From positions 30,707 through 94,706 of the forward strand of contig JAFSVJ010000028.1 in the NCBI GenBank assembly GCA_017445025.1: a stretch of DNA of 64,000 nt, in the 5' to 3' direction. Within the stretch, counting starts at the first letter, position 1. Every line of letters begins with the position of its first letter. Source of the stretch: Abditibacteriota bacterium. Its GTDB lineage: Bacteria; Armatimonadota; UBA5829. Shown here in pieces: positions 1 to 28,079 of this stretch. The notes beneath the pieces were generated by a model that was not told the DNA's origin, ran no database searches, and saw nothing but the letters and a program-made list of their open reading frames with translations. The position numbers and the translations under genes are program-made.

Positions 1-908
1 CTTTCTATTTCTCTATTAAGATCTGTAGTATTAAAATCGGACAAATCTTTTTCTTTTTCTGATAATCTATCTAAGTCAGGGAAAATTTTATACTTATAAT
101 CCTTAGTATCATTAAAAGAAATACCGGTATATTCTATATCTTTTATGTTGCCACTCTTTTCTCCGATTTTTTCATTTAATCTATCAATTTCTTTTGCCTT
201 TGCTTCATTTTCAACCAACTGCTCAAAATCAAACTCATCTGTAAACTCTTTAAGTTTTCTTTTTGCCTCATCAAGGGCAGTTGCTGATGAATTAAATTTA
301 TCTAAATCAATTAAGTCTTTCCCTATCTTTATTTTTCTATTAAGTTCTTTAATTTGATCGATATTAGCATCAATTTCTTTTTGAAGATCTTTAACTTTAT
401 TCCAAGCTTCTTTTTTACCTTCAATATTCTTTTTATTTATCTCTAAATCAATCATTATTGGTTTTATATCTTCAGTTTTAGTTTTTCTCGGCTTCTTATC
501 AACTAAATTCAAATCACATGTTCCGATTTTAGCCAATAAATCATCATAATTAGAGAATTTTCCGTTTACCAAACTGTCTAAATTCAAGTCATAAAATCCA
601 TCCGGTCTTTCACCAATTGGCATAGACCAAATATCTTCTTCTTTTTCAACATTTGTATCAAAAGTCACCTTTTGTCCGTCAAGAGTTGCTTCACCTTTAA
701 TAGAACCGTAAGTTTCTTTAGATTCATGTCCTCTTTTAAGTCTTTCTCTCCAAATAATACCTTTTATGGCAGAACATAAAGTAGATTTCCCGCTACCGTT
801 TTGACCTAAAACCACATTGATTTTTTTTAAGTTATCTAAAGATAACCTTTTTATTTTTCTGTTTGGATAACTGTCAAGTTTTATGTTTCTTAATTCTAGT
901 TTACTCAT
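1..908 (-). CDS. SbcC/Rad50-like AAA ATPase, N-terminal part (gene continues past window start)
   Basis: Manual minus-strand translation from ATG at 906-908 gives MSKLELRNIKLDSYPNRKIKRLSLDNLKKINVVLGQNGSGKST..., a Walker A motif near the N-terminus followed by Lys/Glu-rich coiled-coil-like sequence. The start overlaps the stop of the upstream phosphoesterase gene by 8 nt, the typical sbcD-sbcC arrangement. Confidence 0.6.
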   Translation of the reverse strand, partial: MSKLELRNIKLDSYPNRKIKRLSLDNLKKINVVLGQNGSGKSTLCSAIKGIIWRERLKRGHESKETYGSIKGEATLDGQKVTFDTNVEKEEDIWSMPIGERPDGFYDLNLDSLVNGKFSNYDDLLAKIGTCDLNLVDKKPRKTKTEDIKPIMIDLEINKKNIEGKKEAWNKVKDLQKEIDANIDQIKELNRKIKIGKDLIDLDKFNSSATALDEAKRKLKEFTDEFDFEQLVENEAKAKEIDRLNEKIGEKSGNIKDIEYTGISFNDTKDYKYKIFPDLDRLSEKEKDLSDFNTTDLNREIE

Positions 909-2181
909 TTTTATCACTCTCCCCCGGCAAAATATCAATTAAAGATTTTCGAATAAACTTCAATAATTCTTCATCATCTAAATAATCATAATAGCCATTA
1001 CGAGCTGGTTCTGTATACTCTTCACTTTGTTCTTTGTATTTAACAAAACTATCACCATATTTTTCAATAAAAGTTCCATCATCAATTGACAATATCATTT
1101 CAGCCACAACACCTATAGCATTAGGTTGTTTTGCCATTTCTCCCAAATTATACACACCTTCTATATTATCAATAAATTCTGATACATAAACATCTTCTGC
1201 CACATAACCGTTTACGGCAGATTGGTTTTCTTCCATTTCTTCTCTGATTTTATCATGTTTTTCTTTTGAAAGATTTCCGATTAGGTTCACCTTATATAAA
1301 TTTAAACTATGTTTACATTCCAAATTTTCATTTAAAATAGAACTTAAAGAATGTTCATCACTAAAATCTGACACATCCGCATCCACTAATTCATAATATA
1401 CTTTTGAAAAAGATTCAAAGCAGAAATTAACCTTATCTAATTTTTCATCTAATTCCAACGTCCAAAAACCATGTTCACCCTTTTCACCAAAATCAAAAGC
1501 CTGAGGAGAACCTAAACTAACATACTTATCTTTTTCTTCTTTTTTATGAGTGTGACCAATTAAAGTAATAATAGAGTTATTTATTACATCACCATTTAAG
1601 CTGTCTTTAAATGGGCCATATTTATTATCTTTTTCATTAGCATTATAATCCCCGTGAATCATAATTATATATTTATCGTCTTCAATTTTTAATTTTATTT
1701 CTTTATTATCTTCATTTTTTAATTTTCTTTTAAATGGATTTGTTTTTAAATCATCATCTAATCCGAAACCGTAAATACTTAATCCATTAAGATCAAACCT
1801 TTGCCACTTGCAACCACAACCTATCAAATGAACGAAAGAATAAGGAGTATTAGATAATAAATCTGAAAGTCGTGACTTATCATGATTTCCCGGAATCATA
1901 ACAACTTCTATATTTTTATCTTTTAGTTTTTCAAAACCGTTATTAAGAATTTGACGTGACGTAAAAGTGGATGTATCCTCATCTAATATATCCCCACAGA
2001 TTAATATAGCATCATAGTTGTTTTGAGAAGCTATATCAATAATATCATACCAAGCTTTTTCCGCAGTAAAATCTTCAATATTATATTTTTCAGGTATTTT
2101 TTTTGAAAAATTACCCAAGTGTAAATCTGCTGTGCAAAGAATTTTCATATTACATTCCTCCTTGTCTTTTTTATTTCTCAA
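901..2181 (-). CDS. SbcD/Mre11-like calcineurin-type metallophosphoesterase (DNA repair exonuclease subunit-like)
   Basis: N-terminus MKILCTADLHLG, then GDILD and GNHD metallophosphoesterase motifs. 426 aa. Translationally coupled to the downstream ATPase. Confidence 0.7.
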   Translation of the reverse strand: MRNKKDKEECNMKILCTADLHLGNFSKKIPEKYNIEDFTAEKAWYDIIDIASQNNYDAILICGDILDEDTSTFTSRQILNNGFEKLKDKNIEVVMIPGNHDKSRLSDLLSNTPYSFVHLIGCGCKWQRFDLNGLSIYGFGLDDDLKTNPFKRKLKNEDNKEIKLKIEDDKYIIMIHGDYNANEKDNKYGPFKDSLNGDVINNSIITLIGHTHKKEEKDKYVSLGSPQAFDFGEKGEHGFWTLELDEKLDKVNFCFESFSKVYYELVDADVSDFSDEHSLSSILNENLECKHSLNLYKVNLIGNLSKEKHDKIREEMEENQSAVNGYVAEDVYVSEFIDNIEGVYNLGEMAKQPNAIGVVAEMILSIDDGTFIEKYGDSFVKYKEQSEEYTEPARNGYYDYLDDEELLKFIRKSLIDILPGESDKNE

Positions 2182-2273
2182 TATTATATACCGAATTTTT
2201 CAAAATAAAATCTAAAAAAAACAGTGTTTTTTATGGGATTTTTATAAATGTCTATATTTTATGACAAATGTCT

Positions 2274-2612
2274 TTATTTTATCTCAAGTTTTTGTCTGTT
2301 GCCACATTTGCGACATGTGAAAGTTGTGTTCATACTTATGGAGGCTCTTGTTTCGGAAGAATTCTCCACATTGCCACATTTTTCACACTTTCTACGAATT
2401 GTTATTAAGTGTCCGTCATCTTTTGTGATAACACAACCCTGTATTGCCACACGAGGAGGCTTTTTGGTTCTCTCAAAAATGCTTTCGCTGTCTGTGGTCT
2501 GTGAGCTACTGTAACTACTTGTTTCGTTATCATTTGTGGTGCAACACAGACCTACAAAGCATAAACCCAAAGCCAATACCAACACTACAATTTTTGTTTT
2601 TAAACTCTTCAT
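2274..2612 (-). CDS. small secreted/membrane-anchored protein with C-terminal CxxC...CxxC zinc-ribbon
   Basis: N-terminal hydrophobic signal-like segment (IVVLVLALGLCFVGLCC), a Ser/Thr-rich linker, then CEKCG...CRKCG. Confidence 0.45.
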   Translation of the reverse strand: MKSLKTKIVVLVLALGLCFVGLCCTTNDNETSSYSSSQTTDSESIFERTKKPPRVAIQGCVITKDDGHLITIRRKCEKCGNVENSSETRASISMNTTFTCRKCGNRQKLEIK

Positions 2613-2628
2613 TTTTTATCTCCTTATA

Positions 2629-3687
2629 TTAATAAATATAACCTTTACAGGATAACATAACAGCTTGTGCAAAGCTGTGAGCGCTTGTCCATTTCTCAGA
2701 TAATTCTTTCGGTTTATAAAAAACACTCTCAGTATGTAGTTTCTTTGCTCTCAACAAATCACAACAGATTGAAATAACTTCAAAATTCAATATCTCAAAG
2801 GGACCTATCTCTACCTTAGATTTATCCTTATATAGATAAAATGTCTTTCCGGATTCAATGTAAATAACACAGTTAAGATTAAAACTATCCATTACATCTA
2901 AAACAGATGATATAAACCCTTCCCTATCATCATTTTTAAAGGGAACAAGCAAAGATTGTTCTTCATATTGATGAAGCGTATCGGGGATTGGTTGGTTATT
3001 TCTATAATAACTGTCCCTCAATTGTTCCTTTCGTTCCGCAAATCTTAACTTCTTTTCACGAAGTTTCTTTTTTAAATTCTCGTGCTTTTCTGTATCAACA
3101 CTTAATTGCTTATGTTTCCTTTCAATAATTTCTTTATCACTCAAACCTTCTAAAGAAGCGTTAGAATCAACACCATAAACATTAATTATCACAAAATCGT
3201 GAAATTTAGATAAAAAACCAATCTCATCTGCGGATCTTCCGGGACATACTACGCTAATCCATTTTGTAGCTTTTGAGATTTTTTCAAGATAATCTTCCAG
3301 ACTTTTTTGCTTATCTTCATAATGTGCCTTTTTTGCTTTTTTTATAATATGTTTAACAATATCTGTTTCTTCACTAAGGACATTTAACAAAAATGATTTA
3401 CCGACTTTATTTATAAATATTAATGAATCGGCATAATTTTCATCCTCACTCAATTCAACTATGGATAATATATGTGCTTGTGGGCTGTTTTCTTCTACCA
3501 TATCTTTTGTTAAAGAGTGGCAGGAATATCTGTCCATCTTGTCAAATAATTCTTCACGATACTTAGTGGCTTTCTCTGCTCCGGCAAGGTCGCCTTCTAC
3601 TTCTAAAGCTTTGATTGTACCATAAGCTCGGTTGAACTCTGTGTAGAGCTGCATTGGAATTTCTTTTAATTTTTTTCCTAATAACAT
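2629..3687 (-). CDS. hypothetical protein (352 aa), first gene of operon with zinc-ribbon protein and SbcCD-like pair
   Basis: Long ORF with protein-like composition and no motif I can assign. Its stop is 16 nt upstream of the next minus-strand start. Confidence 0.5.
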   Translation of the reverse strand: MLLGKKLKEIPMQLYTEFNRAYGTIKALEVEGDLAGAEKATKYREELFDKMDRYSCHSLTKDMVEENSPQAHILSIVELSEDENYADSLIFINKVGKSFLLNVLSEETDIVKHIIKKAKKAHYEDKQKSLEDYLEKISKATKWISVVCPGRSADEIGFLSKFHDFVIINVYGVDSNASLEGLSDKEIIERKHKQLSVDTEKHENLKKKLREKKLRFAERKEQLRDSYYRNNQPIPDTLHQYEEQSLLVPFKNDDREGFISSVLDVMDSFNLNCVIYIESGKTFYLYKDKSKVEIGPFEILNFEVISICCDLLRAKKLHTESVFYKPKELSEKWTSAHSFAQAVMLSCKGYIY

Positions 3688-4007: not shown

Positions 4008-4199
4008 CTATTTTTCCAATACCTTTTCTTTAAACTCTTGTGGTAAATCTAAGTATTCAAGAACAACAAAATCTATACCATCTACATTATCTACAATTAA
4101 GTCAACGGCTACTAAATCATCTTTCCCTTTAATCTTATGCTTAAACATTATAACGAGGACACTTAATTTTAACATAGCAGCTACAGGTAAATTATCCAT
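4008..4199 (-). CDS. small hypothetical protein (63 aa)
   Basis: ORF lying 11 nt downstream of the 64-aa ORF on the same strand. No recognisable motif. Confidence 0.3.
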   Translation of the reverse strand: MDNLPVAAMLKLSVLVIMFKHKIKGKDDLVAVDLIVDNVDGIDFVVLEYLDLPQEFKEKVLEK

Positions 4200-4210
4200 A
4201 GATAATTCAA

Positions 4211-4405
4211 TTAATTCTTGAAAAAAGATGCTCTGTCAAAACAGGTCTCTCCATACCCCTCTAACCCTATCATTCTTAAAATGTCACTATTCCATATTAG
4301 GGTTATTGTATCTATTTTGGCTTCGGCTCCTTTGGCAATAAATTTTACCAAATATTGTTTCGTTACGGAGATTATCTCCTTTTCATTTTCGTTTTTTGTT
4401 GACAT
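4211..4405 (-). CDS. small hypothetical protein (64 aa), paralog-like to 15070..15213
   Basis: Preceded by RBS GGAGGTGA. It sits immediately downstream (minus sense) of repeat R1. A C-terminal segment NSDILRMIGLEGYGE resembles VSDLFGSKVVELMGE in the 47-aa gene that follows repeat R2. Confidence 0.45.
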   Translation of the reverse strand: MSTKNENEKEIISVTKQYLVKFIAKGAEAKIDTITLIWNSDILRMIGLEGYGETCFDRASFFKN

Positions 4406-4435
4406 AGCGTCACCTCCGATTTAAATATTTTGGTT

Positions 4436-4545
4436 AAGGTTTTTCCCCTTCCATATATATATAGTCATATTTCCACCCAAAATTGCCATTTTTTCAAAAA
4501 ATTTTTTTTAAAAAAAGTGATACCATGTTTTCACATAGTATCACT
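4436..4545. repeat. ~110-bp direct repeat R1 (terminator hairpin plus putative promoter module); second copy at 15321..15446
   Basis: Shared core ccttccatatatatatagtcatatttccacccaaaattgccattttttcaaaaaa plus gataccatgttttcacatagtatc in both copies, with small indels. Confidence 0.8.
4508..4543 (-). terminator. putative rho-independent terminator for the island-1 operon (inside repeat R1)
   Basis: Minus strand reads gatactatg-tgaaaac-catggtatc, a 9-bp stem with one G-U pair, followed by a U-run. Confidence 0.4.
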
Positions 4546-4635: not shown

Positions 4636-6228
4636 TTACCAATTATTTCTGCGTTTTGCCCACAATGATTGTGCTTCTTTCACTAAATCATACATAAACT
4701 CTCTAACCATACCCGAAAACAAATTATCAATACTAGTATCCGGGAATAATTCATTAAATGCTTCTAATATATGAAGAATATAGTCAGGAGTGGCTGTAGG
4801 CAAAACATATTTATTCCTAAGATAAATTGAATCATGAGGACCAAAATCATCAAAGAATTCAACTGTCTTACTCTTTCCTGCTTTAATATAATTATAAAAG
4901 TCTTTTTCCAACTTTAAGTGTTTTTCTTCTTTTACTATTCTTTCCCACGCAGCTCGACCAAATAAATCTTTAACAGAGAATTTTATTTTCATTCCTGAAG
5001 GAAGAAGGGAAGCCAAAGCCAAAGCTATATCCAAAAGAGAGTCCAATTTTGGATACATTAAATTCTTTATACTATTCCAAACTATTTTACCCACAAAATC
5101 TTCCAAATTCAAAGGTTTAACACTATGTGATGAAAGCCAATGATCTTCTGTTATAATTATATCATCATCACCAAATTCTTTATCTAATCCTTCAATATTA
5201 TCGAACGATCCACCTTCGTCATCATATTCCATTTCATCATAATCTTCATCATTTATGTCTATTCCGGAAAATATTATATTAAAGGCCCTTAAAATGCCTA
5301 AAATATAATCTAAATCTGCAGGTGGTAATTTGACACTATTTCTTTCATAGAGTGTTTCTTCTACCGGGCCGTTATCCTCAACAATTTCTATAGATTTACT
5401 TTTTCCCTCTTTGATATAATTATAAAAGTCTTTAAAAAGCTTTTGATCTTCTTCAGCACCAACAATTCTATCCCAAGCTTTTTTGCTAAAGAGTTTGCGA
5501 ATATTAAATTTAATTCCCTTGCCGGCAGGAAGAAGATTTGCCAAAGCAATAGCAATTTGGAGCAAGGTTCGTGGTTTTTTGTTATGATTATCTATAGTAT
5601 TTTTAATTAAAACGCCAAAAATGTCACATTTATCTAAAGGATACTCTTCAGGGAATAAAGCATTAAAGGAATCCATAATCTCTCTTATATATTCCTCGTC
5701 TGCGGGAGGCAAAACCACATCATTTCGCTTGTATATAGCTAATTTAGGGGTGATATCATTATAGATTTCAAGAGCAGCTTCTTTTTTGGCTTTAACATAA
5801 TCATAGAATTCTTCTGTAAGACCGGAATATAAGCCATATTTTTTGATTCTCTTCAAAGCTTCTCTGCTAAACAATTCCTCTATTCTAAACATGGTATTGA
5901 AAGGCAAGAGGCAAGCTAATCTTACAGCTATTTCCAACAATGTCAATTTTCTCTTGGATTTGCCAGATGAAATTGTTTTTACAATATTATTATTACTCCT
6001 AAGAGATAATTTTGTATAGATTTTTAATGACTCAGAAAGAGTGATTAAATCCAAATCAGATTTATCTCTAAGGTTTTCAAATTCCTCTTCAACTTCTTGA
6101 GCTAATTTTAATGCTTTAATTTCATCCCACAGAGATGCATTAAATAAAGCTGATACGGTAAAAGCGGAATCTTTAGGTTTGTTCATTGCCTCGCTTATGG
6201 CAATCTTTGCAATGGTTTTAGGGTCCAT
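4636..6228 (-). CDS. hypothetical protein with three tandem ~110-aa internal repeats (last gene of island-1 operon)
   Basis: Three repeat units each contain LLxIAxxLAxLLPxG ... FxxKxW(D/E)RI ... LPPAD(x)DYIxxIxxxFN. The start is 17 nt downstream of the SNF2 gene stop. Confidence 0.6.
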   Translation of the reverse strand: MDPKTIAKIAISEAMNKPKDSAFTVSALFNASLWDEIKALKLAQEVEEEFENLRDKSDLDLITLSESLKIYTKLSLRSNNNIVKTISSGKSKRKLTLLEIAVRLACLLPFNTMFRIEELFSREALKRIKKYGLYSGLTEEFYDYVKAKKEAALEIYNDITPKLAIYKRNDVVLPPADEEYIREIMDSFNALFPEEYPLDKCDIFGVLIKNTIDNHNKKPRTLLQIAIALANLLPAGKGIKFNIRKLFSKKAWDRIVGAEEDQKLFKDFYNYIKEGKSKSIEIVEDNGPVEETLYERNSVKLPPADLDYILGILRAFNIIFSGIDINDEDYDEMEYDDEGGSFDNIEGLDKEFGDDDIIITEDHWLSSHSVKPLNLEDFVGKIVWNSIKNLMYPKLDSLLDIALALASLLPSGMKIKFSVKDLFGRAAWERIVKEEKHLKLEKDFYNYIKAGKSKTVEFFDDFGPHDSIYLRNKYVLPTATPDYILHILEAFNELFPDTSIDNLFSGMVREFMYDLVKEAQSLWAKRRNNW

Positions 6229-6245
6229 TTGTTTCTCCTTTTTAT

Positions 6246-9200
6246 TTAGTGTTTTTTATTTTCATATCCTACTATTATTTTGGTTTCTTTTTCCTCAGTC
6301 CTGTTTATAGAATTGATATATTTGGATTTACCTAAATCTTCATACAATTCTGTTATTTTTGCTTCCAATTTATCATCATCTTTCCAATCTTTGATTTTTC
6401 TATAATCAAAAGTTGACAAAGTCCCTAATCCTGTAATATCATCTATAAGGGCTTTTATGAAATCTTTATACTTGGCGCAAGAATGATATCTGTCTTTCTT
6501 TATTATACCTTCAAGAGACTTAAGAGTATTATAGGCTTTTTCTTCATCTCCCTTTTTAGGTAAAGAATGTCTGATTCCTGCATTAACATCTATAAGCTTA
6601 GGATACATATTCCAGAAATTATCGGAAAAAGTTTCAAGTGGGGTATCCGGGTCACACTTGATTTTATCTATCAAATCCTTATTAAGCTTGGTCTCAACAT
6701 AACTTTTGCTTGTATCAAAATTAAAGTGGCGAACAAACATATCATTTTTAAGAATAAAGAGTATTAATTCATTGTCTGTGCCTAATTTACAGGTTTTGAT
6801 TCTGTAAGGCATTTTATCAATATTCTTTAATGCTTCCTGAACTTTAGGATCTGTGCTTTCTTCAATGGATTTATAGAGTTTTCGAACATAAGTGTAAAAG
6901 CTCTCTTCTTCATCCTCATAAGGCAACTTATGTAACGCTTCGGAAAGCTCCGCCGCAGTAGGCTCTTCATCCGGAGTGAAGATTTTGGCATCTTCACCTA
7001 AAATATTGTGAATCAACAGCATTTTTTGAGTGGCAATTTGTTTAACTCGAACAGTGTCGGAAGTTAATTCTGAAGGGAAGAAGTTATAAATGTAAAGTTT
7101 GTCAAAGACTTTTGCGGAAATTCTGTTCATTCTTCCCACTCTTTGAATAACACGCACCGGGTTCCAAGGAATATCATAGTTTATTACAACACCGGCTCTG
7201 TTAAGGTTATGTCCTTCACTCATTTTATCCGTAGAAACAAGAATGTGTTTATCGTTAGTTTGGTCTTTGCAAGAATAATCAAATTCTTTTTCTATTTCTT
7301 CAATTTTTATACTGGAACCATAGACATATTCTATGTCATCTCTATGTAATCCGTCAAATTTATTCCTTAGATGTTTAACTGTATCCGCAAATTCTGTAAA
7401 TACCAATATTTTTCTATTAGGTTCTTTTGCTTTGATTCCATCTACAATTTTAACCAATTCTTCAAACTTAGGGTCTTTATCAACCATCTTAAGGTCTTCA
7501 CACCTTTCTTTAATTTTGGTAAATAAATCTATATCTTTTTTAATATCCTCTAAAAAATCCGCTTCGCCTGAAGGGGTAAATTCATATACATCATATTCTT
7601 TTCCCTTTTTGGCTTGCATTTCTTTTAACTTTTCTAAAACTTCATCATCATCCAAATCGACACAATCTGTCATAAATTTTCTGTTTAATACATAATAACC
7701 ATTAGTTGTGACAAAGGAATATATTTCAATATTTGTTTGAAGATATCTTTTAACGGATTCATAAAAAGCACCAAAAGAAGACTCAAGTCTTTTAACTATG
7801 ATTCTTTTCATAAAATCATACAATTGATCTTGATACTGTTTTGCCAATTTCTTAGATACAGAATTCTTTGCATCATAATTTACAGGACGATAAATAGCTC
7901 CTATAAAATCTCCGCCGGTTTTAGAAAAATACCTCAATATATCATCATAAAAATCTGATAAATCCGGCTCTAAAAAATATAAAGCTTCTCTGGGGTCTTC
8001 AATGGTAGAAAGGTCTCCTGTTTCTTTTTTATAATCCGGGTTGTTTAATATATCAAGTCTGTTTCTTCTTATAATATAACTTGAAATATCATCTTTGACC
8101 TCTCCCCCAACATCTTTCATCATTTTGTGCAATTTATCAATCTCAGGTTTACCTATTGAAGCAACTTTAACGCCGGGCAAGTATTTACTCAATAATCTAT
8201 CAATCTTAGCTAATTTTGCAGGATCTGTAGATCTATAATCTTTAATAATAGAATTAATATCTTCTATACGAGCTTTAACATCCATAAACTTTTCAAACAA
8301 AGAATATCCATAGGATGCAGATACAAATTTAGTAGGTAAGAACAATTTTAAAATACTATGAATATCCCAAAAGGTGTTATTGAATGGAGTAGCGGTTAAT
8401 AAAATAACTTTTTTGTTTTTACAGATAGTATTTAGATAACCATAGGTATCGTTTTTGTCATTTCTAAACCTATGAGCTTCGTCGATAATTACATTATCAA
8501 AATCAGAATATAATTTTCTCTCATAAATATACTTTAAATTGGAAAAGCTTGAAGATTCAACCTCACCTCGTATATTAAATTTATACTTATAATCTTTCCA
8601 ACCATATGAACCTGGTTCACCTATAAGATTAGGTGGACACAAAATAAGAGTGTTACCTGGCAATTGGGTGGCTATTACAGAAGCAATAATACTTTTTCCG
8701 AGACCTACAACATCACCGAGAATAACTCCACCATAGTCTTCTATTTTACCCAAAGCCTCACGAATAGCATCTATTTGAAATCTAAAAGGCTTAAATCCGG
8801 CTTTATCCAATATTTGAGGAATATTTTTATCATCTTCCATATCCAATGACAGATAGGTTTTTAGTATATAGATATAGGCTTCATAAGGGGTCACCTTTCT
8901 GCAATGGGTTTCCTTAGTCAAGATTTCAATAATATCTTTCTTTATAGAATCATCTTCGGTAATTAAAATAGCATCTCTCCAAAGATTTTCAAAATATTCA
9001 TCTGCTTCAATATAATCTTTAGCATGATTTACTTCAACATTAAATTCATCTTGACGGAACAAACCGGCAGATGTAAAATTGGAAGACCCGGTTATAAAAC
9101 GATTGTCTTTTCCATCTTTAGGATAGGCAAAGAGATATAATTTTGAATGATTATCTTTATTGGTTTTACGGATGATGATTTTTCCTTCTTTAATCCATTT

Positions 9201-9521
9201 TATAAAATCCTCATATTGGTCGTAAAACTCTTTTTTATCCAGAGCTTCAGAACAAAAGTTTTCTCTGACAGAAGAGAGAAATTTCTCAACGCCTTCACCG
9301 GAAATAGCCTTAACTATAATACTCTCGGAATTAAGGCCCACAAGTATTCTTAATTTAAGGTCATTCTTTTCAGCTTTGGCTTTTAGTTCTTGGTAGAGTT
9401 CCGGGATCGCGGAAAAATAGAAGTATCCCACCAAGAATTTCATTTCTGTAGATGTAGGAATTAAATCTTGAAATTTGGCTTTTAATGTGGTTGTGTCGTT
9501 ATTAATAATTAAGTTTGGCAT
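6246..9521 (-). CDS. fused phospholipase-D-family nuclease / SNF2-family (SF2) helicase
   Basis: N-terminal HKD motif NHSKLYLF...GSSNFTSAG. Helicase motifs: I (GDVVGLGKS), II (IIDEAHRFRN), III (LLTATPFNN) and VI (VIQRVGRMNRI). 1091 aa. Confidence 0.8.
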   Translation of the reverse strand: MPNLIINNDTTTLKAKFQDLIPTSTEMKFLVGYFYFSAIPELYQELKAKAEKNDLKLRILVGLNSESIIVKAISGEGVEKFLSSVRENFCSEALDKKEFYDQYEDFIKWIKEGKIIIRKTNKDNHSKLYLFAYPKDGKDNRFITGSSNFTSAGLFRQDEFNVEVNHAKDYIEADEYFENLWRDAILITEDDSIKKDIIEILTKETHCRKVTPYEAYIYILKTYLSLDMEDDKNIPQILDKAGFKPFRFQIDAIREALGKIEDYGGVILGDVVGLGKSIIASVIATQLPGNTLILCPPNLIGEPGSYGWKDYKYKFNIRGEVESSSFSNLKYIYERKLYSDFDNVIIDEAHRFRNDKNDTYGYLNTICKNKKVILLTATPFNNTFWDIHSILKLFLPTKFVSASYGYSLFEKFMDVKARIEDINSIIKDYRSTDPAKLAKIDRLLSKYLPGVKVASIGKPEIDKLHKMMKDVGGEVKDDISSYIIRRNRLDILNNPDYKKETGDLSTIEDPREALYFLEPDLSDFYDDILRYFSKTGGDFIGAIYRPVNYDAKNSVSKKLAKQYQDQLYDFMKRIIVKRLESSFGAFYESVKRYLQTNIEIYSFVTTNGYYVLNRKFMTDCVDLDDDEVLEKLKEMQAKKGKEYDVYEFTPSGEADFLEDIKKDIDLFTKIKERCEDLKMVDKDPKFEELVKIVDGIKAKEPNRKILVFTEFADTVKHLRNKFDGLHRDDIEYVYGSSIKIEEIEKEFDYSCKDQTNDKHILVSTDKMSEGHNLNRAGVVINYDIPWNPVRVIQRVGRMNRISAKVFDKLYIYNFFPSELTSDTVRVKQIATQKMLLIHNILGEDAKIFTPDEEPTAAELSEALHKLPYEDEEESFYTYVRKLYKSIEESTDPKVQEALKNIDKMPYRIKTCKLGTDNELILFILKNDMFVRHFNFDTSKSYVETKLNKDLIDKIKCDPDTPLETFSDNFWNMYPKLIDVNAGIRHSLPKKGDEEKAYNTLKSLEGIIKKDRYHSCAKYKDFIKALIDDITGLGTLSTFDYRKIKDWKDDDKLEAKITELYEDLGKSKYINSINRTEEKETKIIVGYENKKH

Positions 9522-9618
9522 TTTTTACCTCAAAACAATTAGTATACCCTAAAACTCGGAGAGTTTCTTGGAGGGGATTTTACCACTCTTTGTAAAATCA
9601 CAAAGAGGGGTAATATCA

Positions 9619-11460
9619 TTATATTTTTTTAAAAATCAAATTAACCAATTCTGTAGCTATTTCTTCCCCTCGCTCAGTTATATCTTTCCAAGTAGTAAAA
9701 GTAGTATAGCTTTCAGAATCAATTAAGGCATTTCTCTTGCTTGTTATTGGATCTTTATAAAATATCCTGGTATTTCCGATTTTATTTAAGCAAGAATCTT
9801 TAAAGTTTTTGTAAAGTTTATCCTTACACTCCTTAGGAAAATCACAACCGGATTTATAAACTGTTATACCATTATCATCATCTAAACCATCCATATAGTA
9901 TTGATATGAAGGATCAGAAGAACTTGGATTTTCGGGACATATATAATCTAAAATAAGCTCATCAAAATCTAAATCCAATAAATTATAAGCTTCTTTATAA
10001 TCAATGGTTCCTGATCCTTTTACGGATGCCATATAAAAAGCCAATAATATCATTGCCAACTTATTCTTATATGCATTCATATTTATAATTTCGGACAGAA
10101 CTGAACTATCAGGCAACTTGTTTATATAAGAATCTATTGTAGAAATTATATTAGTTATATTATAAGGTATGGTTTTATCAATCATATATCCCAATATATC
10201 TTTATACAAAGGAATTGAATCTTTACTGTCCCTATTGCAAACTGAAAGATATAAAAAAGAGTGTAGAATTACTTTTGAAACTGCATCTTCTACTTCCTTG
10301 GCAGTCAAAAAGGTTTCTTTATAATCATGCAAAAGTCTGAATATAAATGGCTTTGGATGTTTGTAGGAACCGTTTACAAATATTTTATAGAAAAATTTGA
10401 ATTTATCTCTGTTGATTAAGGTATATGTTTTATCTTCTGAGGTCAACATTTGATAAAACTCAACTTTATCATTTAAATCATCCAAGAATTTCTTCAAAGC
10501 TTCCGTTTCATCGCTTACACCATAATATTCTACCAATTCGTCTACAATCGTTTTTTTGAAATGACTTATTTTAATATTATTATTGTAAAACTTGATAAAA
10601 GCCTTTATATAAGTAGTTAAATAGTCATATAATTGGTCATTGGTTTTAATAATAAGATTTCCCCAAACAGACAAATAATGATGATGACTGGCTTCATCAA
10701 GTTTTGAGAAAATATAAGTCTTTATAAGATCTATATCTTCCAATTGTTTTCCTTTGGAATTAATTGATTCAAAGATAGAGAAAACTTTGGTTTGTTTGCA
10801 GTTGGAATCTATCACTATAAACCTAACAAAATTTAACAAATACTCGGCAAAAGCCAATAAATCATTAGAATCCGAAAATTCTTTTTTCAAATATTGATTT
10901 ATAAACTTAAAATTATCTATAACTCTTTTTTCAAAAGAATTGGCCGGGACAAATGATGAAATAAAATCGTCTATATTGGTGGGATCGTCAAATGCATAAT
11001 CAAATAATTGAGCAAAACAGGTTTTTTCTATACTGTTTAGGGAAATTAATCTTTGATCTTTGATATGTTTCCTGCCGACAACTTTCCATAAACAATTCTT
11101 CAATTTTACAATTGTTAAATCGCTTTCAGGTTCTCCGTTTTTTAATGCTCTTGTATATACTGACAAAAAAATCAAGGCAAAGGTGGTTATTCTTTGTTGA
11201 CCGTCTATAATATCATAAATGTTAATGTTTCCGTTAATTTTAGGTAAGGGAGTCTCATAAATTATAATATTACCGGTGTAATATCCTTCACTTCTTTCAT
11301 CAATATCGGTTAAATCAAAGACTTCTTTAATATCAATCAACAACTGATCAATATTTTCCTTATCCCAAGAATAAGGTCTTTGATACACAGGAACTGTGTA
11401 AGCTGACTTGAATAAATCTTCCAAGTCCATTGAAGCGGGGTCAAAAGTTTTTTTTGGCAT
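9619..11460 (-). CDS. DUF262 (ParB/Srx-like) + C-terminal DUF1524-like nuclease; GmrSD/BrxU/SspE-like type IV restriction-like enzyme
   Basis: N-terminal YQRPYSW and DGQQRITT motifs typical of DUF262. 613 aa with a C-terminal Cys/His-containing region. The start is 21 nt downstream of the MTase stop. Confidence 0.7.
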   Translation of the reverse strand: MPKKTFDPASMDLEDLFKSAYTVPVYQRPYSWDKENIDQLLIDIKEVFDLTDIDERSEGYYTGNIIIYETPLPKINGNINIYDIIDGQQRITTFALIFLSVYTRALKNGEPESDLTIVKLKNCLWKVVGRKHIKDQRLISLNSIEKTCFAQLFDYAFDDPTNIDDFISSFVPANSFEKRVIDNFKFINQYLKKEFSDSNDLLAFAEYLLNFVRFIVIDSNCKQTKVFSIFESINSKGKQLEDIDLIKTYIFSKLDEASHHHYLSVWGNLIIKTNDQLYDYLTTYIKAFIKFYNNNIKISHFKKTIVDELVEYYGVSDETEALKKFLDDLNDKVEFYQMLTSEDKTYTLINRDKFKFFYKIFVNGSYKHPKPFIFRLLHDYKETFLTAKEVEDAVSKVILHSFLYLSVCNRDSKDSIPLYKDILGYMIDKTIPYNITNIISTIDSYINKLPDSSVLSEIINMNAYKNKLAMILLAFYMASVKGSGTIDYKEAYNLLDLDFDELILDYICPENPSSSDPSYQYYMDGLDDDNGITVYKSGCDFPKECKDKLYKNFKDSCLNKIGNTRIFYKDPITSKRNALIDSESYTTFTTWKDITERGEEIATELVNLIFKKI

Positions 11461-11481
11461 ATTTGCCTCCTTAAAATTTAA

Positions 11482-14400
11482 TTATTTTTCAATTATTTTA
11501 ATTTCGTCATCAGTTAGATCATAAAGCTGATACACAAGGGTGTCGATTTCTTTTTCAAGGCTTGTGGTGTCCTTGCCTTGCTTTTTGCCCTCTGTAATTT
11601 GATCCACCAAATTCTCTATTTGATTGGCTATCTGCATGTTATCATCTTTTATTTCAGGAATAGGAAGTTTAATAACATCTTGAGTAAACCATCTTACAGC
11701 ATTTGTTCCTAATGAATTTCCATAATATGATATAAATGCATATCTTATTAATCTTGAATTTAATAAACCACAAATATATTTTACATTATTACCTGTAAGC
11801 ATATAACAAGTATTTAATAAATAATAACATTCATAATCATATATCATTTCTCCATCTGATATATCAGCCCATATAATTTTAGGTTTTTCATAATCTTTAT
11901 AATAATTTATTGTAGTTTGAGTTTCATACCATTTTCCAGAGGTTTTACTTCTTGCCTTAAAAGAACCATAATTTTTACCTGTCTGTTCAAGTCTTCTTTT
12001 ATCAAAATTATCTAAAAAGTATTTTTCAATTGTGGGATAATCTTTTATATTCAAATGTAAAGCCGGAAAAATTCCTATCACCCACAAATTAGCCCAATGA
12101 TATTCATATCTCTTTACATCTGAACCACGCAAGATGGGTTTAATTATTTTCTCCGTTCTCTGTCGTTCGGCAGATGTGGAACAGTTGTTTAAAATCTCGT
12201 CTTTGGTAGCTGTATCTATAATAAAAGCGTCATTAAAGCCGGTTTTAATACCATAATTAATGGTAATATCATCCCATTCTCCTAATGGTGTGCCTATATG
12301 CTCTATTTTTTTCTTTAGTGATACTTCTTCTCTTGATCCTATAAACCAACTGTCACTTGATAATTCTTTTAATATGACAGAATTATTGGTTATATAATCT
12401 CCCAAATTATCTTTAGGATTTTGACCTTTTCCCACCTTTAATGAACAAGCTTCAAGATCATAATGTATTTTTTCCTTTTTAATCAATAATATATTTGTAT
12501 CTACAGTTGCACTGTCAAAGACTCCGGGGCCTAAGTCTATCAACATCTTGGGGTTAAAATTGCAGAAATAGCCTCTTAACTTTTCACCATATCCGGCACG
12601 CATCCATTTGTTGGAGGTGATATAACATAAATTACCACCTGTCTTTAACAAATTCATTCCTTTTTCATAAAATAAACAATATATATCTCCACTACCATCA
12701 TGGGTTTCAAAACCTTGGGAAGCATATCGGTCTCTTAAATCTTTAGGTTTTATTTTTTGAAGTGGTATATAAGGCGGGTTTGCTATAACAATATCAAATC
12801 CTTCTTCAATACCAAACATCCATTTCGGATCAAACCAAGGGCAGGATTTGTTCTCAAAAGGATTCCAATCACATATAAACTGAATTCTTTCACTATCAGA
12901 ACCAATTTCTATGGCCTCATCTCTTATATTTTTTAATTTATATAAATACTCATCTTTTAATCTGTCTTTATCGTTTCCATGAGCATTTAAATAATCTTTT
13001 CTTATTTTTTGTAAATCTTTAATATCATTATCAAAATAACTATCGGAAAGATCTTTTGAGTCCGGTAAAGCAATTAAAGTATTGGCAGATACAAATTTAA
13101 AATCCAAATTAGGCAAAGGGAAAATATTTCTGTTTTCAACACCATCGTCTACTCTTTCATCTACAATTAAAGATAAAAAACATCTAAGCCTTGCAATATC
13201 CGTAGCCATGGTTTGTATATCCACACCATAAACAGAATTTCTGATAATTCCCAACTTATGTATATAACTTATGGCTTCTTGATTAAGTTTTGTTTCATAA
13301 GCCTCAAAAGCTTCCGTTAAAGTTGTTTTATCATGAGCCAGTATATAGTTTCTCCATAACTTTCCGTCGACATCCAATTTCCCTAAAATAAATAATATCT
13401 TCTGTAGCAGTCCCATAGGAAAGGCACCGGAACCACAAGCGGGATCAAGAATCTTAATATTGTATAAAGCTTCTGTTAATATTACTGTGACACATTGATC
13501 AAAAGGATTAGTCTCTTCATTAACGTCAAACAATTTATCTAACTTATCTTTATCTTTACAGAATTTATACAAATACTCCTTTAAACTCTCTTCACACATA
13601 TAATCCACTATTTCTCTAGGAGTATAAAAAGAACCGGAAGACTTTCTTGCATCTTCTTGGGTGACAGGATCTATAAATGCCAAAAGGTTTTCAAATATTT
13701 TACCCAACATTTCAGGGTCCACAGATATATCTGTATCGTTTACAGAGTTTTCATCTATAGTAAAATTAAATCTCCCGAATAAATCAAATAGTTTTATAAA
13801 CCATTGATTTGAAACTTTTAACACACCTGTGTTTGAATAATCACCTTTGTATTTATCTTCATCAATACATTGGAACAAACCACCGTTTAAATAAGGAACA
13901 AAATTAAAGTCATTTTGAGAAACAATATTATTATTTAATGTTTTATTATATTCTGTATAATCTCTTAAAGATTTGTTCTTATTAAGAACTTCAAAAAACA
14001 ATGTTTGTAGAACATAAGTATAGTATCCGCAATCGGAAGTCATTTTTTCAATAGTTTCAATACTTAAAATCTTATCCGGAATAATCTCCTTTCCTTGAAT
14101 TGATTTCTTTTGTTTCAAAAACCAACAGAATAAAATTCTTCCCAACAAACGAATTATAAATTTATTCTTATCTTCTTCCAATCCTTGATATTTCATCAAA
14201 GTCTTATCATTTTGTAAAGACAAATATAAGTCTTGAATTTCTTTATAAAATTCTTTTGTTACTTTTTCGATGGAGAAGGAGTCTGATAAGTCTTCAACCT
14301 TAAGCCACCTTTGATATTCTCCGGAAGAAGTCCGGTTTGCCACATATTTTTCAAAAGTCTTGTTGTTCTTAACAACCAATTCACCCTCATCATTTTCTTC

Positions 14401-14868
14401 CATTTGGAAAAAATGGGTTTGTCTGTTATACTTTGTAAACTCTACCTTTCCTTCACCGGGATAGATTTTTCTGACAAGGGACAGACGACAAGAAAGACTG
14501 TCGTTGTCATAAAAAGCCACCAAAGCAAAATCATAATCACTGCTTTTAATCAAATCCTTGATAATCTTAAACTGAAAAGATTTACTGCTTTTTTCCGTTA
14601 AGTTGTGGGACTTATCTTCACCTTTTTTTTCATTATACTCACTTACATAATCTTTATAATTGATTAAATAGCAAATAACATTATCGGAGCTGATTTTTCC
14701 ATATCCCAATTCTGTGATTGGACAACGGTTATCATCTGTAGTCTCCCTTGTTTTAGCTTCATCAATAATAGGATTGAATTTTCTTCTGATTAAGTCTGAT
14801 AAATAGGATTCTAATTTTGTTGGTGTTTTTGCCATTTTTAATTCTCTGTCATAATAATCGTTTAACAC
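11482..14868 (-). CDS. large gamma-class N6-adenine DNA methyltransferase (PglX / DrmMI / type IIG-IIL-like), 1128 aa
   Basis: Motif X GSFYTPREIVDYM, motif I ILDPACGSGAF, motif IV IANPPY. Long N- and C-terminal extensions, the C-terminal one TRD-like. Confidence 0.8.
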   Translation of the reverse strand: MLNDYYDRELKMAKTPTKLESYLSDLIRRKFNPIIDEAKTRETTDDNRCPITELGYGKISSDNVICYLINYKDYVSEYNEKKGEDKSHNLTEKSSKSFQFKIIKDLIKSSDYDFALVAFYDNDSLSCRLSLVRKIYPGEGKVEFTKYNRQTHFFQMEENDEGELVVKNNKTFEKYVANRTSSGEYQRWLKVEDLSDSFSIEKVTKEFYKEIQDLYLSLQNDKTLMKYQGLEEDKNKFIIRLLGRILFCWFLKQKKSIQGKEIIPDKILSIETIEKMTSDCGYYTYVLQTLFFEVLNKNKSLRDYTEYNKTLNNNIVSQNDFNFVPYLNGGLFQCIDEDKYKGDYSNTGVLKVSNQWFIKLFDLFGRFNFTIDENSVNDTDISVDPEMLGKIFENLLAFIDPVTQEDARKSSGSFYTPREIVDYMCEESLKEYLYKFCKDKDKLDKLFDVNEETNPFDQCVTVILTEALYNIKILDPACGSGAFPMGLLQKILFILGKLDVDGKLWRNYILAHDKTTLTEAFEAYETKLNQEAISYIHKLGIIRNSVYGVDIQTMATDIARLRCFLSLIVDERVDDGVENRNIFPLPNLDFKFVSANTLIALPDSKDLSDSYFDNDIKDLQKIRKDYLNAHGNDKDRLKDEYLYKLKNIRDEAIEIGSDSERIQFICDWNPFENKSCPWFDPKWMFGIEEGFDIVIANPPYIPLQKIKPKDLRDRYASQGFETHDGSGDIYCLFYEKGMNLLKTGGNLCYITSNKWMRAGYGEKLRGYFCNFNPKMLIDLGPGVFDSATVDTNILLIKKEKIHYDLEACSLKVGKGQNPKDNLGDYITNNSVILKELSSDSWFIGSREEVSLKKKIEHIGTPLGEWDDITINYGIKTGFNDAFIIDTATKDEILNNCSTSAERQRTEKIIKPILRGSDVKRYEYHWANLWVIGIFPALHLNIKDYPTIEKYFLDNFDKRRLEQTGKNYGSFKARSKTSGKWYETQTTINYYKDYEKPKIIWADISDGEMIYDYECYYLLNTCYMLTGNNVKYICGLLNSRLIRYAFISYYGNSLGTNAVRWFTQDVIKLPIPEIKDDNMQIANQIENLVDQITEGKKQGKDTTSLEKEIDTLVYQLYDLTDDEIKIIEK

Positions 14869-15069: not shown

Positions 15070-15213
15070 TTATCTCTCTATACTCTCCCCCATTAATTCC
15101 ACAACCTTTGATCCAAATAAATCGGATACAGTTAAATCCGTCCCTTTTGGAAATCTTATTGCCGCTAAAATGGCAAATGCCAATTTAACAAATACATTCG
15201 TTTTTGAATCCAT
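15070..15213 (-). CDS. small hypothetical protein (47 aa), not in ORF track
   Basis: Manual translation gives MDSKTNVFVKLAFAILAAIRFPKGTDLTVSDLFGSKVVELMGESIER. A GGAGGT RBS lies 3 nt upstream. It sits just downstream (minus sense) of repeat R2, mirroring the 4211..4405 gene after R1. Confidence 0.4.
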   Translation of the reverse strand: MDSKTNVFVKLAFAILAAIRFPKGTDLTVSDLFGSKVVELMGESIER

Positions 15214-15320: not shown

Positions 15321-15446
15321 AAGGTTTTCTTTTCTCCCTTCCATATATATATAGTCATATTTCCACCCAAAATTGCCATTTTTTCAAAAAAAATTTTTAA
15401 ATATTTTTTGACAAAAAAAAAGATACCATGTTTTCACATAGTATCT
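15321..15446. repeat. direct repeat R2 (copy of 4436..4545)
   Basis: Same core sequence and hairpin as R1. Confidence 0.8.
15411..15445 (-). terminator. putative rho-independent terminator downstream of dxs (inside repeat R2)
   Basis: Minus strand: 9-bp stem gatactatg/catggtatc, 6-nt loop, then a 9-U run. Confidence 0.45.
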
Positions 15447-26954: not shown

Positions 26955-28079
26955 TTATGAATTTAATAACTTAAGAATAGTTTCATCATAATTATCAGTA
27001 TAATTTTTTAATACTCTCAAAAATTCTTTAAAATCAGATATTTTTTCCATTTTGCTTATGGTTATCCAATCTAAATCTTTATATTTAGCTTGAAATAAAG
27101 TTTTACTGTTTTTAGGATTTTCAAAATCATATTTAATAATGCCTATACCAAAGGCATTATTTAATCTTTCCATTTCTTCTTGTAATTCTGGTTTATCATC
27201 AATTTCACTTGCAACCAAATATCCTTCATTTGCCCAACTTGAATTTGATACTGCTTGAAAATATGATTTCTTTAAATCCCCAAGAGTTAATGATTTCTTA
27301 AGTTCAAAAGAATAAATAGTGCAAGGAGCATTAGACATTTTTTTTACAAGATCTTGAGTTATATTCTCATATTTATGTGGTTTTACACCAACTATATCCG
27401 GATTCATCCATTCAAAATCCCCTTTTTTACCATTACTTTCTTGAATTCTTTTTCCATAAACATTAAATTTAACTTTTAAATACTCTATAAATGGCATGTA
27501 CATATCTTTTTCATCAAATTTCTTTTTTTCTATAATATGAAATTCTGCTTGTTTATTATCATTATTAAAATATCTTAATTTAAATTTAGCTTCATCAACT
27601 TTGACAAATTCAGAATTATCACCATTATTCTTAATATCTTCATATATAGGAGTTGATAAAGTATCTATAGGATTTTTACTTTTGGTATTTAGTTTTTTGT
27701 CATAACCTTTGTTAACACCGTAAGCCCAAATATCATTTATGTGTGTTGGCTCATTATTTAATTCGGTTAAAACTTCTATGGCAAAATCTTTAAATGTATA
27801 TTTGTTATTATTATAAAGAGGGTTTAGAGAGAATTTCCCTTTATCTATTTGAATAAATTCGGAGTTTTTTCCTTTCTTTTTTATATCTAAGTATAATTGG
27901 GCAGAAATAGTTGCTTCCGGAGTTTTACCGATATTTTTAAGTTTCTTGTGAAAATCCCGAAATACTCCTTGCTCCCAAATTTCCTTAGCAGTTAATATTT
28001 GATTTGAAGCTTTTAAAGTTTCTCTTGCAAAATCCTTGTAAGTATATGCCATTTTATAATCTCCTTTAAAATGTATCAA
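26955..28079 (-). CDS. tandem HARE-HTH domains + C-terminal PD-(D/E)xK-like nuclease domain (restriction-endonuclease-like), island 2
   Basis: Two repeats containing GKTPEATISAQLY / NPIDTLSTPIYEDI that resemble the HARE-HTH of RNAP delta and restriction enzymes. The C-terminal region has NPDIVGV ... YSFELKKS (PD ... ExK). The start overlaps the upstream gene stop by 14 nt. Confidence 0.55.
   Translation of the reverse strand: MIHFKGDYKMAYTYKDFARETLKASNQILTAKEIWEQGVFRDFHKKLKNIGKTPEATISAQLYLDIKKKGKNSEFIQIDKGKFSLNPLYNNNKYTFKDFAIEVLTELNNEPTHINDIWAYGVNKGYDKKLNTKSKNPIDTLSTPIYEDIKNNGDNSEFVKVDEAKFKLRYFNNDNKQAEFHIIEKKKFDEKDMYMPFIEYLKVKFNVYGKRIQESNGKKGDFEWMNPDIVGVKPHKYENITQDLVKKMSNAPCTIYSFELKKSLTLGDLKKSYFQAVSNSSWANEGYLVASEIDDKPELQEEMERLNNAFGIGIIKYDFENPKNSKTLFQAKYKDLDWITISKMEKISDFKEFLRVLKNYTDNYDETILKLLNS

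Follow-up and report, generated by a model that had tools for sequence, protein, structure and literature searches.

The stretch of DNA analysed here, referred to as the window, consists of 64,000 nucleotides (nt) of contig JAFSVJ010000028.1 (positions 30,707 to 94,706 of the forward strand) from the Abditibacteriota bacterium assembly GCA_017445025.1. It contains a block of four open reading frames (ORFs), all on the minus strand, that encode a large DNA methylase, a GmrSD-like protein, a protein in which a phospholipase D (PLD) domain is fused to a Snf2 motor, and a protein built from DUF1413 repeats (Table 1). A preliminary description of this DNA had presented the four genes as one candidate defence system. 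As documented below, the conserved entity is a widespread, unnamed pair of genes, encoding the methylase and the PLD-Snf2 protein, and the four-gene set is a local composite.

Table 1. Features of the four-gene block and its borders, numbered from the first nucleotide of the window
Feature	Position	Strand	Description
Methylase, core gene 1	11482..14868	-	1128 amino acids (aa); Pfam Eco57I + TaqI_C + N6_Mtase
GmrSD-like embedded gene	9619..11460	-	613 aa; Pfam GmrSD_N only
PLD-Snf2 fusion, core gene 2	6246..9521	-	1091 aa; Pfam PLDc_2/RE_NgoFVII + SNF2-rel_dom + Helicase_C
DUF1413 repeat protein	4636..6228	-	530 aa; Pfam DUF1413
47-codon ORF, apparent truncated DUF1413 5′ remnant	15070..15213	-	GGAGG ribosome-binding site; upstream of methylase
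Right direct repeat	15330..15445	-	dxs terminator hairpin with T-run (15447-15420) + promoter-like segment
Left direct repeat	4440..4542	-	Terminator hairpin with T-run (4545-4516) + same promoter-like segment; 64-codon ORF next

The coordinates and translations of the four ORFs were checked, confirming the gaps of 21, 97 and 17 nt between successive ORFs, and all of the motifs quoted earlier for the methylase, the DUF262 (GmrSD-like) protein and the helicase-nuclease could be read in the translations. A scan of the minus strand revealed strong terminator-like hairpins only just past dxs and 91 nt past the stop codon of the 530-aa gene, with none inside the four-gene block. As the strong terminators lie only outside it, the block is a single co-transcribed operon, consistent with the defence-type operon originally envisaged. 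The number of sites returned by a promoter scan was not above that in shuffled sequence, and no promoter is claimed on that basis. The GC content of the block is ~0.30, compared with 0.38-0.40 for dxs and gdh and 0.34-0.39 for the remaining window; the AT-richness relative to dxs and gdh noted previously is therefore real, but the 4.6 kb to the left are as AT-rich as the block itself. The direct repeats that bracket the block, also noted previously, are ~103-116 nt long and ~90% identical, and each includes the promoter-like segment TTGAAAAAATGGCAATTTTGGGTGGAAATATGACTATATATATATGG. They are copies of a duplicated terminator-plus-promoter segment, one of which is the dxs terminator region. No integrase is encoded inside the block.

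The methylase contains the motifs SFYTP, LDPACGSGAF and NPPY, and matches the Pfam families Eco57I (4e-35), TaqI_C (5e-12) and N6_Mtase (5e-12), with REase_MTase_IIG (1e-170) as its best PADLOC model. It is predicted to be an N6-adenine DNA methylase of the gamma class whose C-terminal part is a target-recognition domain of TaqI_C type. PDB profiles for CamA, BseCI, PglX, BrxX, TaqI, MmeI and DrdV match the methylase and recognition parts only, and the recognition domain is hypervariable, with a mean identity of 0.20 across the family. The first ~330 residues form a conserved domain in which R128, S130 and R149 are invariant and D121, the sole well-conserved acidic residue, is near-invariant. 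The family alignment has no conserved D...(D/E)xK triad in this region, the 240 N-terminal residues of 42 family members match no nuclease family in Pfam, and profile searches of PDB and Pfam with the N-terminus returned only noise. With no nuclease signal in the N-terminus, we infer that the PLD-Snf2 partner provides the nuclease in trans. The ORF as listed starts with a GTG at 14868, but homologs align from the ATG at 14835 (residue 12), MAKTPTKLESYL, so that the listed start is probably 11 codons early and this ATG the true start. A TG-extended TATAAT is located ~70 nt upstream of the ATG.

The PLD-Snf2 protein comprises a single-HKD PLD domain (residues ~20-185), a Swi2/Snf2 ATPase (~245-850) and a C-terminal domain (~870-1091), and its translation contains HSKLYLF...GSSNFT, GLGKS, DEAH, TATP and QRVGRMNR. 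The Pfam families PLDc_2 and RE_NgoFVII score 49 and 36 bits, respectively, against cut-offs of 27 and 23.8. Throughout the family, H125, K127 and GSSN145-148 are invariant in the PLD domain, as are GLGK273-276, DEAH347-350, TATP376-379 and Q793, R794, G796 and R797 in the motor, and motifs I, II, III and VI are therefore intact. An AlphaFold2 (AF2) model of the protein (predicted local distance difference test score, pLDDT, of 76.9) has RapA, SMARCAD1, Chd1, CSB and Rad54 as its best Foldseek matches (E ~1e-13), and SauUSI is not within the top 50. Judged from the modelled fold, the motor is a true Swi2/Snf2 ATPase. Each chain has one HKD half-site, an arrangement that in Nuc, BfiI and SauUSI goes with a dimeric active site, and by analogy the PLD-Snf2 protein would also dimerise through this half-site. 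MtsD, the effector of the MANTIS system, is likewise a single-HKD protein with a dimeric active site (bioRxiv 10.64898/2026.09.23.753747). The fusion of PLD and SNF2 in one polypeptide, initially regarded as a novelty, is shared by >6000 homologs from many phyla, the best of which are ~40% identical over their full length, and which are annotated at source as "helicase-related protein". The same architecture is found in MtsD of MANTIS/Gao_RL, in PbeA and in Type-2 BR helicases (bioRxiv 10.64898/2026.09.23.753747; PMC10853773; PMC12839542). The best PADLOC match, "C3a139 HKD+Snf2", represents a candidate family of accessory proteins of Type III CRISPR rather than a defined system (PMC6546367).

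A scan of one genome per species identified at least 586 confirmed relatives of the PLD-Snf2 protein, and the 80 best-scoring loci, from many phyla, were retained for comparison; the 32 with at least 5 kb on both sides were considered informative. In 31 of these 32 loci the PLD-Snf2 gene is accompanied, on its own strand, by a gene homologous to that for the 1128-aa methylase. The earlier suggestion that a PglX/DrmMI-like methylase is combined with a PLD and SNF2 protein is supported. Both gene orders are found. When the helicase gene precedes the methylase gene, the two ORFs overlap by 4 nt in ten loci, and when the methylase gene is first, the two are often separated by 0.4-4.8 kb of variable genes. 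Genes that occupy this slot elsewhere encode YhcG/DUF1016 nuclease, AAA_14+DUF4143, DUF4268, Macro, Bro-N and resolvase proteins, with a further example in locus L092, and a 12-member cluster of SLFN_AlbA_2+HATPase_c_4 proteins is encoded between, or directly flanking, the core genes. Across pairs of loci, helicase identity correlates with methylase identity over residues 1-800 (Mantel r = 0.42, p ~5e-4). The pair is also present in plasmid-collection records from cultured strains of Parabacteroides distasonis, Allomeiothermus silvanus and Thermus oshimai, with generic annotation only. No DUF262 or DUF1413 ORF was detected in the 80 loci by tblastn, phmmer or hidden Markov model (HMM) searches of 12,510 ORFs of at least 40 aa, and the four-gene system proposed earlier is thus not conserved. 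Eight of the largest neighbour proteins in the related loci (889-1251 aa) contain no DrmA/DrmB, BrxC or PglZ domain.

Several of the related loci have additional features. A serine resolvase gene adjoins the methylase gene in L042, L053, L057 and L074, and short inverted fragments of the methylase gene are located beside it in L042, L057 and L067. Programmed inversions have been reported for such methylase genes (PMC9881135), and the resolvase genes and inverted fragments are consistent with recognition-domain shuffling by this process. Two loci lie in defence islands, with an EVE+AAA_5 (McrB-like) gene downstream at 13413-16082 in L061, and a TIR-domain gene and an AAA-domain gene downstream at 16651-21034 in L088, from P. 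distasonis.

The protein encoded between the two core genes in the window has the motifs YQRPYSW and DGQQRITT within a PF03235 (DUF262) domain that scores 112.2 bits against a cut-off of 33.2. Its best PADLOC model (1e-34) is HEC-06, a GmrSD-like family first seen embedded in Hma systems, and same-orientation embedding of GmrSD-like genes is known for Hma, BREX, DISARM and Type I restriction-modification systems (bioRxiv 10.1101/2024.01.29.577857). In common with the GmrSD-family Type IV proteins (GmrSD, BrxU, SspE and HEC-06), the window protein has a DUF262 domain with DGQQR, a long helical linker and a same-orientation embedded gene, but it differs from them in the DUF1524 region, in the conserved His and in the C-terminal domain. 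LDHLLxQ is present in 18 of 18 aligned homologs and reads LDYICPE in the window protein, where Tyr506, confirmed in two independent metagenome assemblies, replaces the conserved His of DH(L/I)xPQ, and the ~110-aa C-terminal domain of the homologs is missing. There is no match to PF07510 (DUF1524/GmrSD_C) in the window protein, even at E <= 10, and the matches in homologs are weak and sub-threshold (E = 0.002 and 0.076). DH(I/L)xP is the signature of DUF1524 His-Me nucleases. Because of the His to Tyr change in this signature and the loss of the C-terminal domain, the window copy is probably nuclease-dead, an argument based on the alignments and on knowledge of the DUF1524 signature. From the original designation as a GmrSD-like nuclease with a DUF1524-like region, the DUF262 domain is retained, whereas the DUF1524-like label and, given Tyr506 and the missing domain, an active nuclease are not.

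The closest homologs of the GmrSD-like protein, 45-47% identical and 726-741 aa long, are encoded in gut Firmicutes (L083-L087), where the genes stand alone or are part of a small mobilisable AlwI restriction-modification islet, and never together with the methylase and PLD-Snf2 pair. We take the GmrSD-like gene to be of Type IV kind, independent of the pair, and to occupy the variable slot that separates the core genes. In the homologs P0123-P0241, the C-terminal ~110 aa are conserved (PKMDKLIEFNxVKPGDKLYIT...WGCKVTGWKSIRIY), have no Pfam match, and may be a reader of DNA or of modified bases. An AF2 model of the window protein has a pLDDT of 56 overall and <50 in the C-terminal half.

The 530-aa protein, previously termed unrecognisable, matches PF07205 (DUF1413) with a score of 76.5 bits against a cut-off of 25. 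The three ~110-aa repeats ascribed to it are confirmed by their alignment, with pairwise z values of 20-40 relative to shuffled sequences, and a degenerate fourth unit is present at the N-terminus. Each repeat is extended by VLPPADxxYIxxIxxAFNxxF. Taken singly, repeat 2 reaches 31.6 bits and repeat 3 reaches 37.1 bits for DUF1413, and repeat 1 and the N-terminal unit are sub-threshold. DUF1413 is the family of LP1413 (PDB 6BTC), a 96-aa winged-helix protein that binds single-stranded DNA (ssDNA) and is encoded beside the Cch helicase in SCCmec (PMC6851490, PMC7581432). LP1413 and the window protein are both encoded near a helicase gene, but the single domain of LP1413 compares with three to four units in tandem in the window protein, all of them extended by a further conserved helix. 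A PDB sequence search with the 530-aa protein did not return LP1413, their direct similarity being too low. By analogy, the window protein is a putative multi-winged-helix DNA-binding protein, encoded by a lineage-specific gene that is co-transcribed with the block without being a conserved partner of it.

The 530-aa protein is a near-orphan, with only two distant relatives among 1.84 billion representative sequences. In a related strain (L091, region 1898-2704), the gene for one of these, P0242 (204 aa), comes immediately after dxs, with the same promoter-like segment in front of it. The dxs genes of L091 and the window have 92% nucleotide identity, and positions 1898-2217 of L091 match 15400-15086 of the window with 77% nucleotide identity. 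The first ~43 codons of P0242 are orthologous to the 47-codon ORF upstream of the methylase gene in the window (77% nucleotide identity), and this ORF also resembles the 530-aa protein in its N-terminal unit (z = 5.2). On these alignments, it is what is left of the 5′ end of a DUF1413 gene, truncated here and intact in L091, where, within the short contig available, there is no methylase gene between dxs and the DUF1413 gene. From the position of P0242 after dxs and the orthologous remnant in the window, DUF1413 genes therefore appear to be native to the site downstream of dxs, and the methylase-GmrSD-helicase block looks to have been inserted among an array of such genes and to be bracketed by the duplicated terminator-plus-promoter segment. 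Two small minus-strand ORFs, of 64 codons (4212-4406) and 55 codons (4009-4176), are located past the left repeat. The first has a weak likeness, by eye, to the N-terminal DUF1413-like unit (ITLIWNSDILRMIG compared with LTVSDLFGSKVVELMG) and no Pfam match.

Further to the left, the AT-rich region continues through minus-strand genes at 1-3687. An SbcC-like ABC ATPase gene (Walker A GQNGSGKST, AAA_23) runs off the start of the window and is accompanied by a gene for an SbcD/Mre11-like phosphoesterase (901-2181) and by ORFs at 2274-2612 and 2629-3687 that have no matches, the second of which is preceded by a perfect TTGACA-17-TATAAT promoter (3734-3706). This SbcCD-like region may be another defence or repair module. 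A second region of low GC content (~0.27) is located at 26955-33124, with genes on the minus strand for a 1330-aa Type IIG restriction-modification enzyme (28066-32058) that matches PADLOC model PDLC03626 end to end (1023 bits) and, beside it, a Type II methylase (357 aa) and a 374-aa ORF.

The relation to DISARM and BREX that was suggested in the preliminary description does not extend to membership of either system, as the curated cut-offs for DrmD and PglX are not reached. Class 1 DISARM has a Snf2 helicase, a PLD nuclease and a large N6-adenine methylase in common with the window, and there are partial HMM matches to DrmD and DrmMI, but DrmC and DrmD are separate proteins whereas PLD and Snf2 are one polypeptide here. 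DrmA (a helicase) and DrmB (DUF1998) were not found in the window neighbours, which extend to 26.6 kb on the right, through housekeeping genes, and 4.6 kb on the left, through the SbcCD-like genes and unknowns. The scores for the DrmD equivalogs, 117.2 bits for NF038317 and 84.1 bits for NF038318, compare with cut-offs of 610 and 950, and are for the C-terminal helicase lobe only. For BREX, the PglX model BREX_1_MTaseX reaches 79.9 of the 500 bits required, neither the window flanks nor the related loci yielded a PglZ or BrxC, and BrxL is likewise lacking. The reported lack of DrmA, DrmB, BrxC and PglZ near the four genes is thus correct, with only 4.6 kb covered on the left. Membership of Hma, Type III and MANTIS systems was also rejected, with core genes missing or cut-offs failed.

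MANTIS/Gao_RL (MtsA-D) is nevertheless similar in its logic, combining self-marking by an N6-adenine methylase with an N-terminal single-HKD PLD domain fused to a superfamily 2 (SF2) ATPase in a restriction-modification-like system, and is a precedent, established by experiment, for restriction that a methylase directs and a PLD-SF2 dimer carries out (bioRxiv 10.64898/2026.09.23.753747). As in MANTIS, the effector of the window pair would act as a dimer and the system would depend on ATP. MANTIS/Gao_RL and Type-2 BR require DUF499, DUF3780 and a DUF1156 methylase (PMC12839542; bioRxiv 10.64898/2026.09.23.753747). Searches of the window and of the neighbours sampled in the related loci revealed neither DUF499 (MtsA) nor DUF3780 (MtsB), and Gao_RL models are absent from the top PADLOC matches. 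The MANTIS core has four genes and a DUF1156-type methylase, the window core two genes and an Eco57I/TaqI_C-type methylase with its own recognition domain.

The methylase itself most resembles Type IIG/IIL enzymes (MmeI, Eco57I, Cj0031) and the PglX of BREX, with motifs in the gamma-class order, a helical spacer like that of MmeI and a fused TaqI_C domain, and, as in Type IIG enzymes, methylase and recognition domain are in one chain. Type IIG enzymes, however, have an N-terminal PD-(D/E)xK nuclease, whereas none is recognisable in the window methylase, the gene for which is almost always paired with a PLD-Snf2 gene. In Type III and Type ISP systems, a methylase/specificity part is coupled to an ATP-dependent SF2 motor-nuclease, as would be the case for the window pair, and by this analogy the pair probably also recognises asymmetric sites. 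The nuclease of Type III and Type ISP systems is, however, PD-(D/E)xK rather than an N-terminal PLD domain, the window motor is Swi2/Snf2 (RapA-like), and the window methylase differs in being gamma-class with a fused recognition domain. Type ISP enzymes are furthermore single chains and the window pair two polypeptides. The pairing of a Cj0031-like Type IIG coding sequence with a PLD+SNF coding sequence was listed in passing by Milman et al. (PMC9881135). In Prevotella intermedia, a SNF2 helicase gene is located upstream of Type IIG genes, one of which is responsible for N6-methyladenine (m6A) at GGYGAB (PMC5608340); the proteins concerned may belong to the same family.

We consider it rather likely that the pair is a two-gene, ATP-dependent restriction-modification module that follows the logic of Type III, Type ISP and MANTIS systems with a smaller and different list of parts, and infer methylation, physical coupling of the two proteins, cleavage and defence as its activities. 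With its hypervariable C-terminal recognition domain the methylase would read a short sequence, and it would mark host DNA with m6A, and the PLD-Snf2 protein would dimerise through its single HKD half-site and thereby make up one PLD active site. At unmethylated sites, the methylase would recruit or license the PLD-Snf2 protein, which would then translocate on double-stranded DNA by means of its Snf2 motor and cut the unmodified DNA. The GmrSD-like gene would be an embedded Type IV remnant and the DUF1413 gene, with its three repeats, a resident of the dxs-downstream site, with neither part of the core.

A number of points weigh against this two-gene module. One informative locus, L043, has no clear methylase gene, and the Mantel correlation could result in part from shared host phylogeny. 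All 80 loci encode helicases that are <=43% identical to the window helicase, and the nearest relative, P0002 (56%), is on a 3.2-kb contig that provides no context, so that close relatives could have the four-gene layout. The missing nuclease in the methylase N-terminus is judged solely from sequence, and the uncharacterised C-terminal ~220 aa of the PLD-Snf2 protein could be a target reader of its own, which would make the protein an autonomous enzyme. The literature searched for the pair contained passing mentions, with no named system and no experimental work on the exact pair.

Such autonomy is central to an alternative in which three independent systems are simply adjacent: a self-contained Type IIG enzyme, a GmrSD enzyme of Type IV, and a PLD-helicase that acts by itself as a Type IV enzyme in the manner of SauUSI. 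Defence genes do cluster in islands, the strongest PADLOC model for the methylase is a Type IIG model, SauUSI is a PLD-SF2 protein able to act alone (bioRxiv 10.64898/2026.09.23.753747), and the C-terminal domain of the PLD-Snf2 protein is uncharacterised. This arrangement is nonetheless unlikely, as same-strand co-occurrence in all but one of the informative loci and 4-nt overlaps are far tighter than island clustering, and neither a D...(D/E)xK motif nor a match to a nuclease family was found in the methylase N-terminus. In addition, the motor is RapA/Snf2-like, with SauUSI outside the top structural matches, and, in contrast to the 1128-aa methylase, the other Type IIG enzyme of the window is matched by its model from one end to the other.

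We give still less credence to an obligate four-component system, in which the GmrSD-like and DUF1413 proteins would be dedicated subunits, for example a nucleoside triphosphate (NTP)-dependent sensor and an ssDNA clamp. The four genes do form one transcription unit, with gaps of 17-97 nt and no internal terminator, LP1413, an ssDNA-binding protein, shares an operon with a helicase in SCCmec (PMC6851490, PMC7581432), and the GmrSD-like protein has kept the invariant DUF262 motifs while losing its nuclease features, which could fit repurposing. The DUF262 and DUF1413 genes are, however, present in 0 of the 80 related loci, the GmrSD-like homologs elsewhere stand alone, the DUF1413 gene of the related strain follows dxs without an intervening methylase gene (on a short contig), and the 530-aa protein is a near-orphan. 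Lineage-specific recruitment, with the nuclease-dead GmrSD-like protein as a ParB/NTPase sensor or regulator and the triple winged-helix protein binding ssDNA in aid of the Snf2 motor, would also produce a new four-component system, and is just as improbable.

A BREX- or DISARM-like mode of action without cleavage, in which methylation identifies self, the Snf2 motor blocks phage replication or remodels DNA, and the PLD domain is non-nucleolytic or a phosphodiesterase, could be suggested by the partial HMM matches to DrmD, BrxHII, DrmMI and PglX, and by the nuclease activity of MtsD being so far without in vitro reconstitution (bioRxiv 10.64898/2026.09.23.753747). With HKD catalytic residues that are invariant across the family, no BREX or DISARM core partner found and all scores far under the curated cut-offs, we doubt this strongly. 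Least credible of all is a non-defence function, with a phase-variable, phasevarion-like methylase as an epigenetic regulator and the helicase active in remodelling or repair, as, although the resolvase genes and inverted methylase fragments in some loci agree with programmed inversions (PMC9881135), the pair is found among TIR, McrB-EVE and YhcG nuclease genes, has a conserved nuclease domain fused to its motor and, in the window, lies in an AT-rich region within a four-gene block bracketed by direct repeats.

The methylase and PLD-Snf2 pair is very widespread, with the at least 586 confirmed matches coming from one genome per species and many phyla. PADLOC v2 and NCBIfam have no dedicated model for the pair, and PGAP labels its members only as "helicase-related protein" and "N-6 DNA methylase". 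The locus also provides a caution, that tight gene spacing in a single genome is insufficient to define a system, as one of the four genes here is a decaying passenger embedded between the core genes and another belongs to the site of insertion. If the interpretation as a two-gene module is correct, the pair would be a minimal form of the methylase-guided PLD-motor restriction logic exemplified by MANTIS, and a possible source of new programmable ATP-dependent restriction enzymes.

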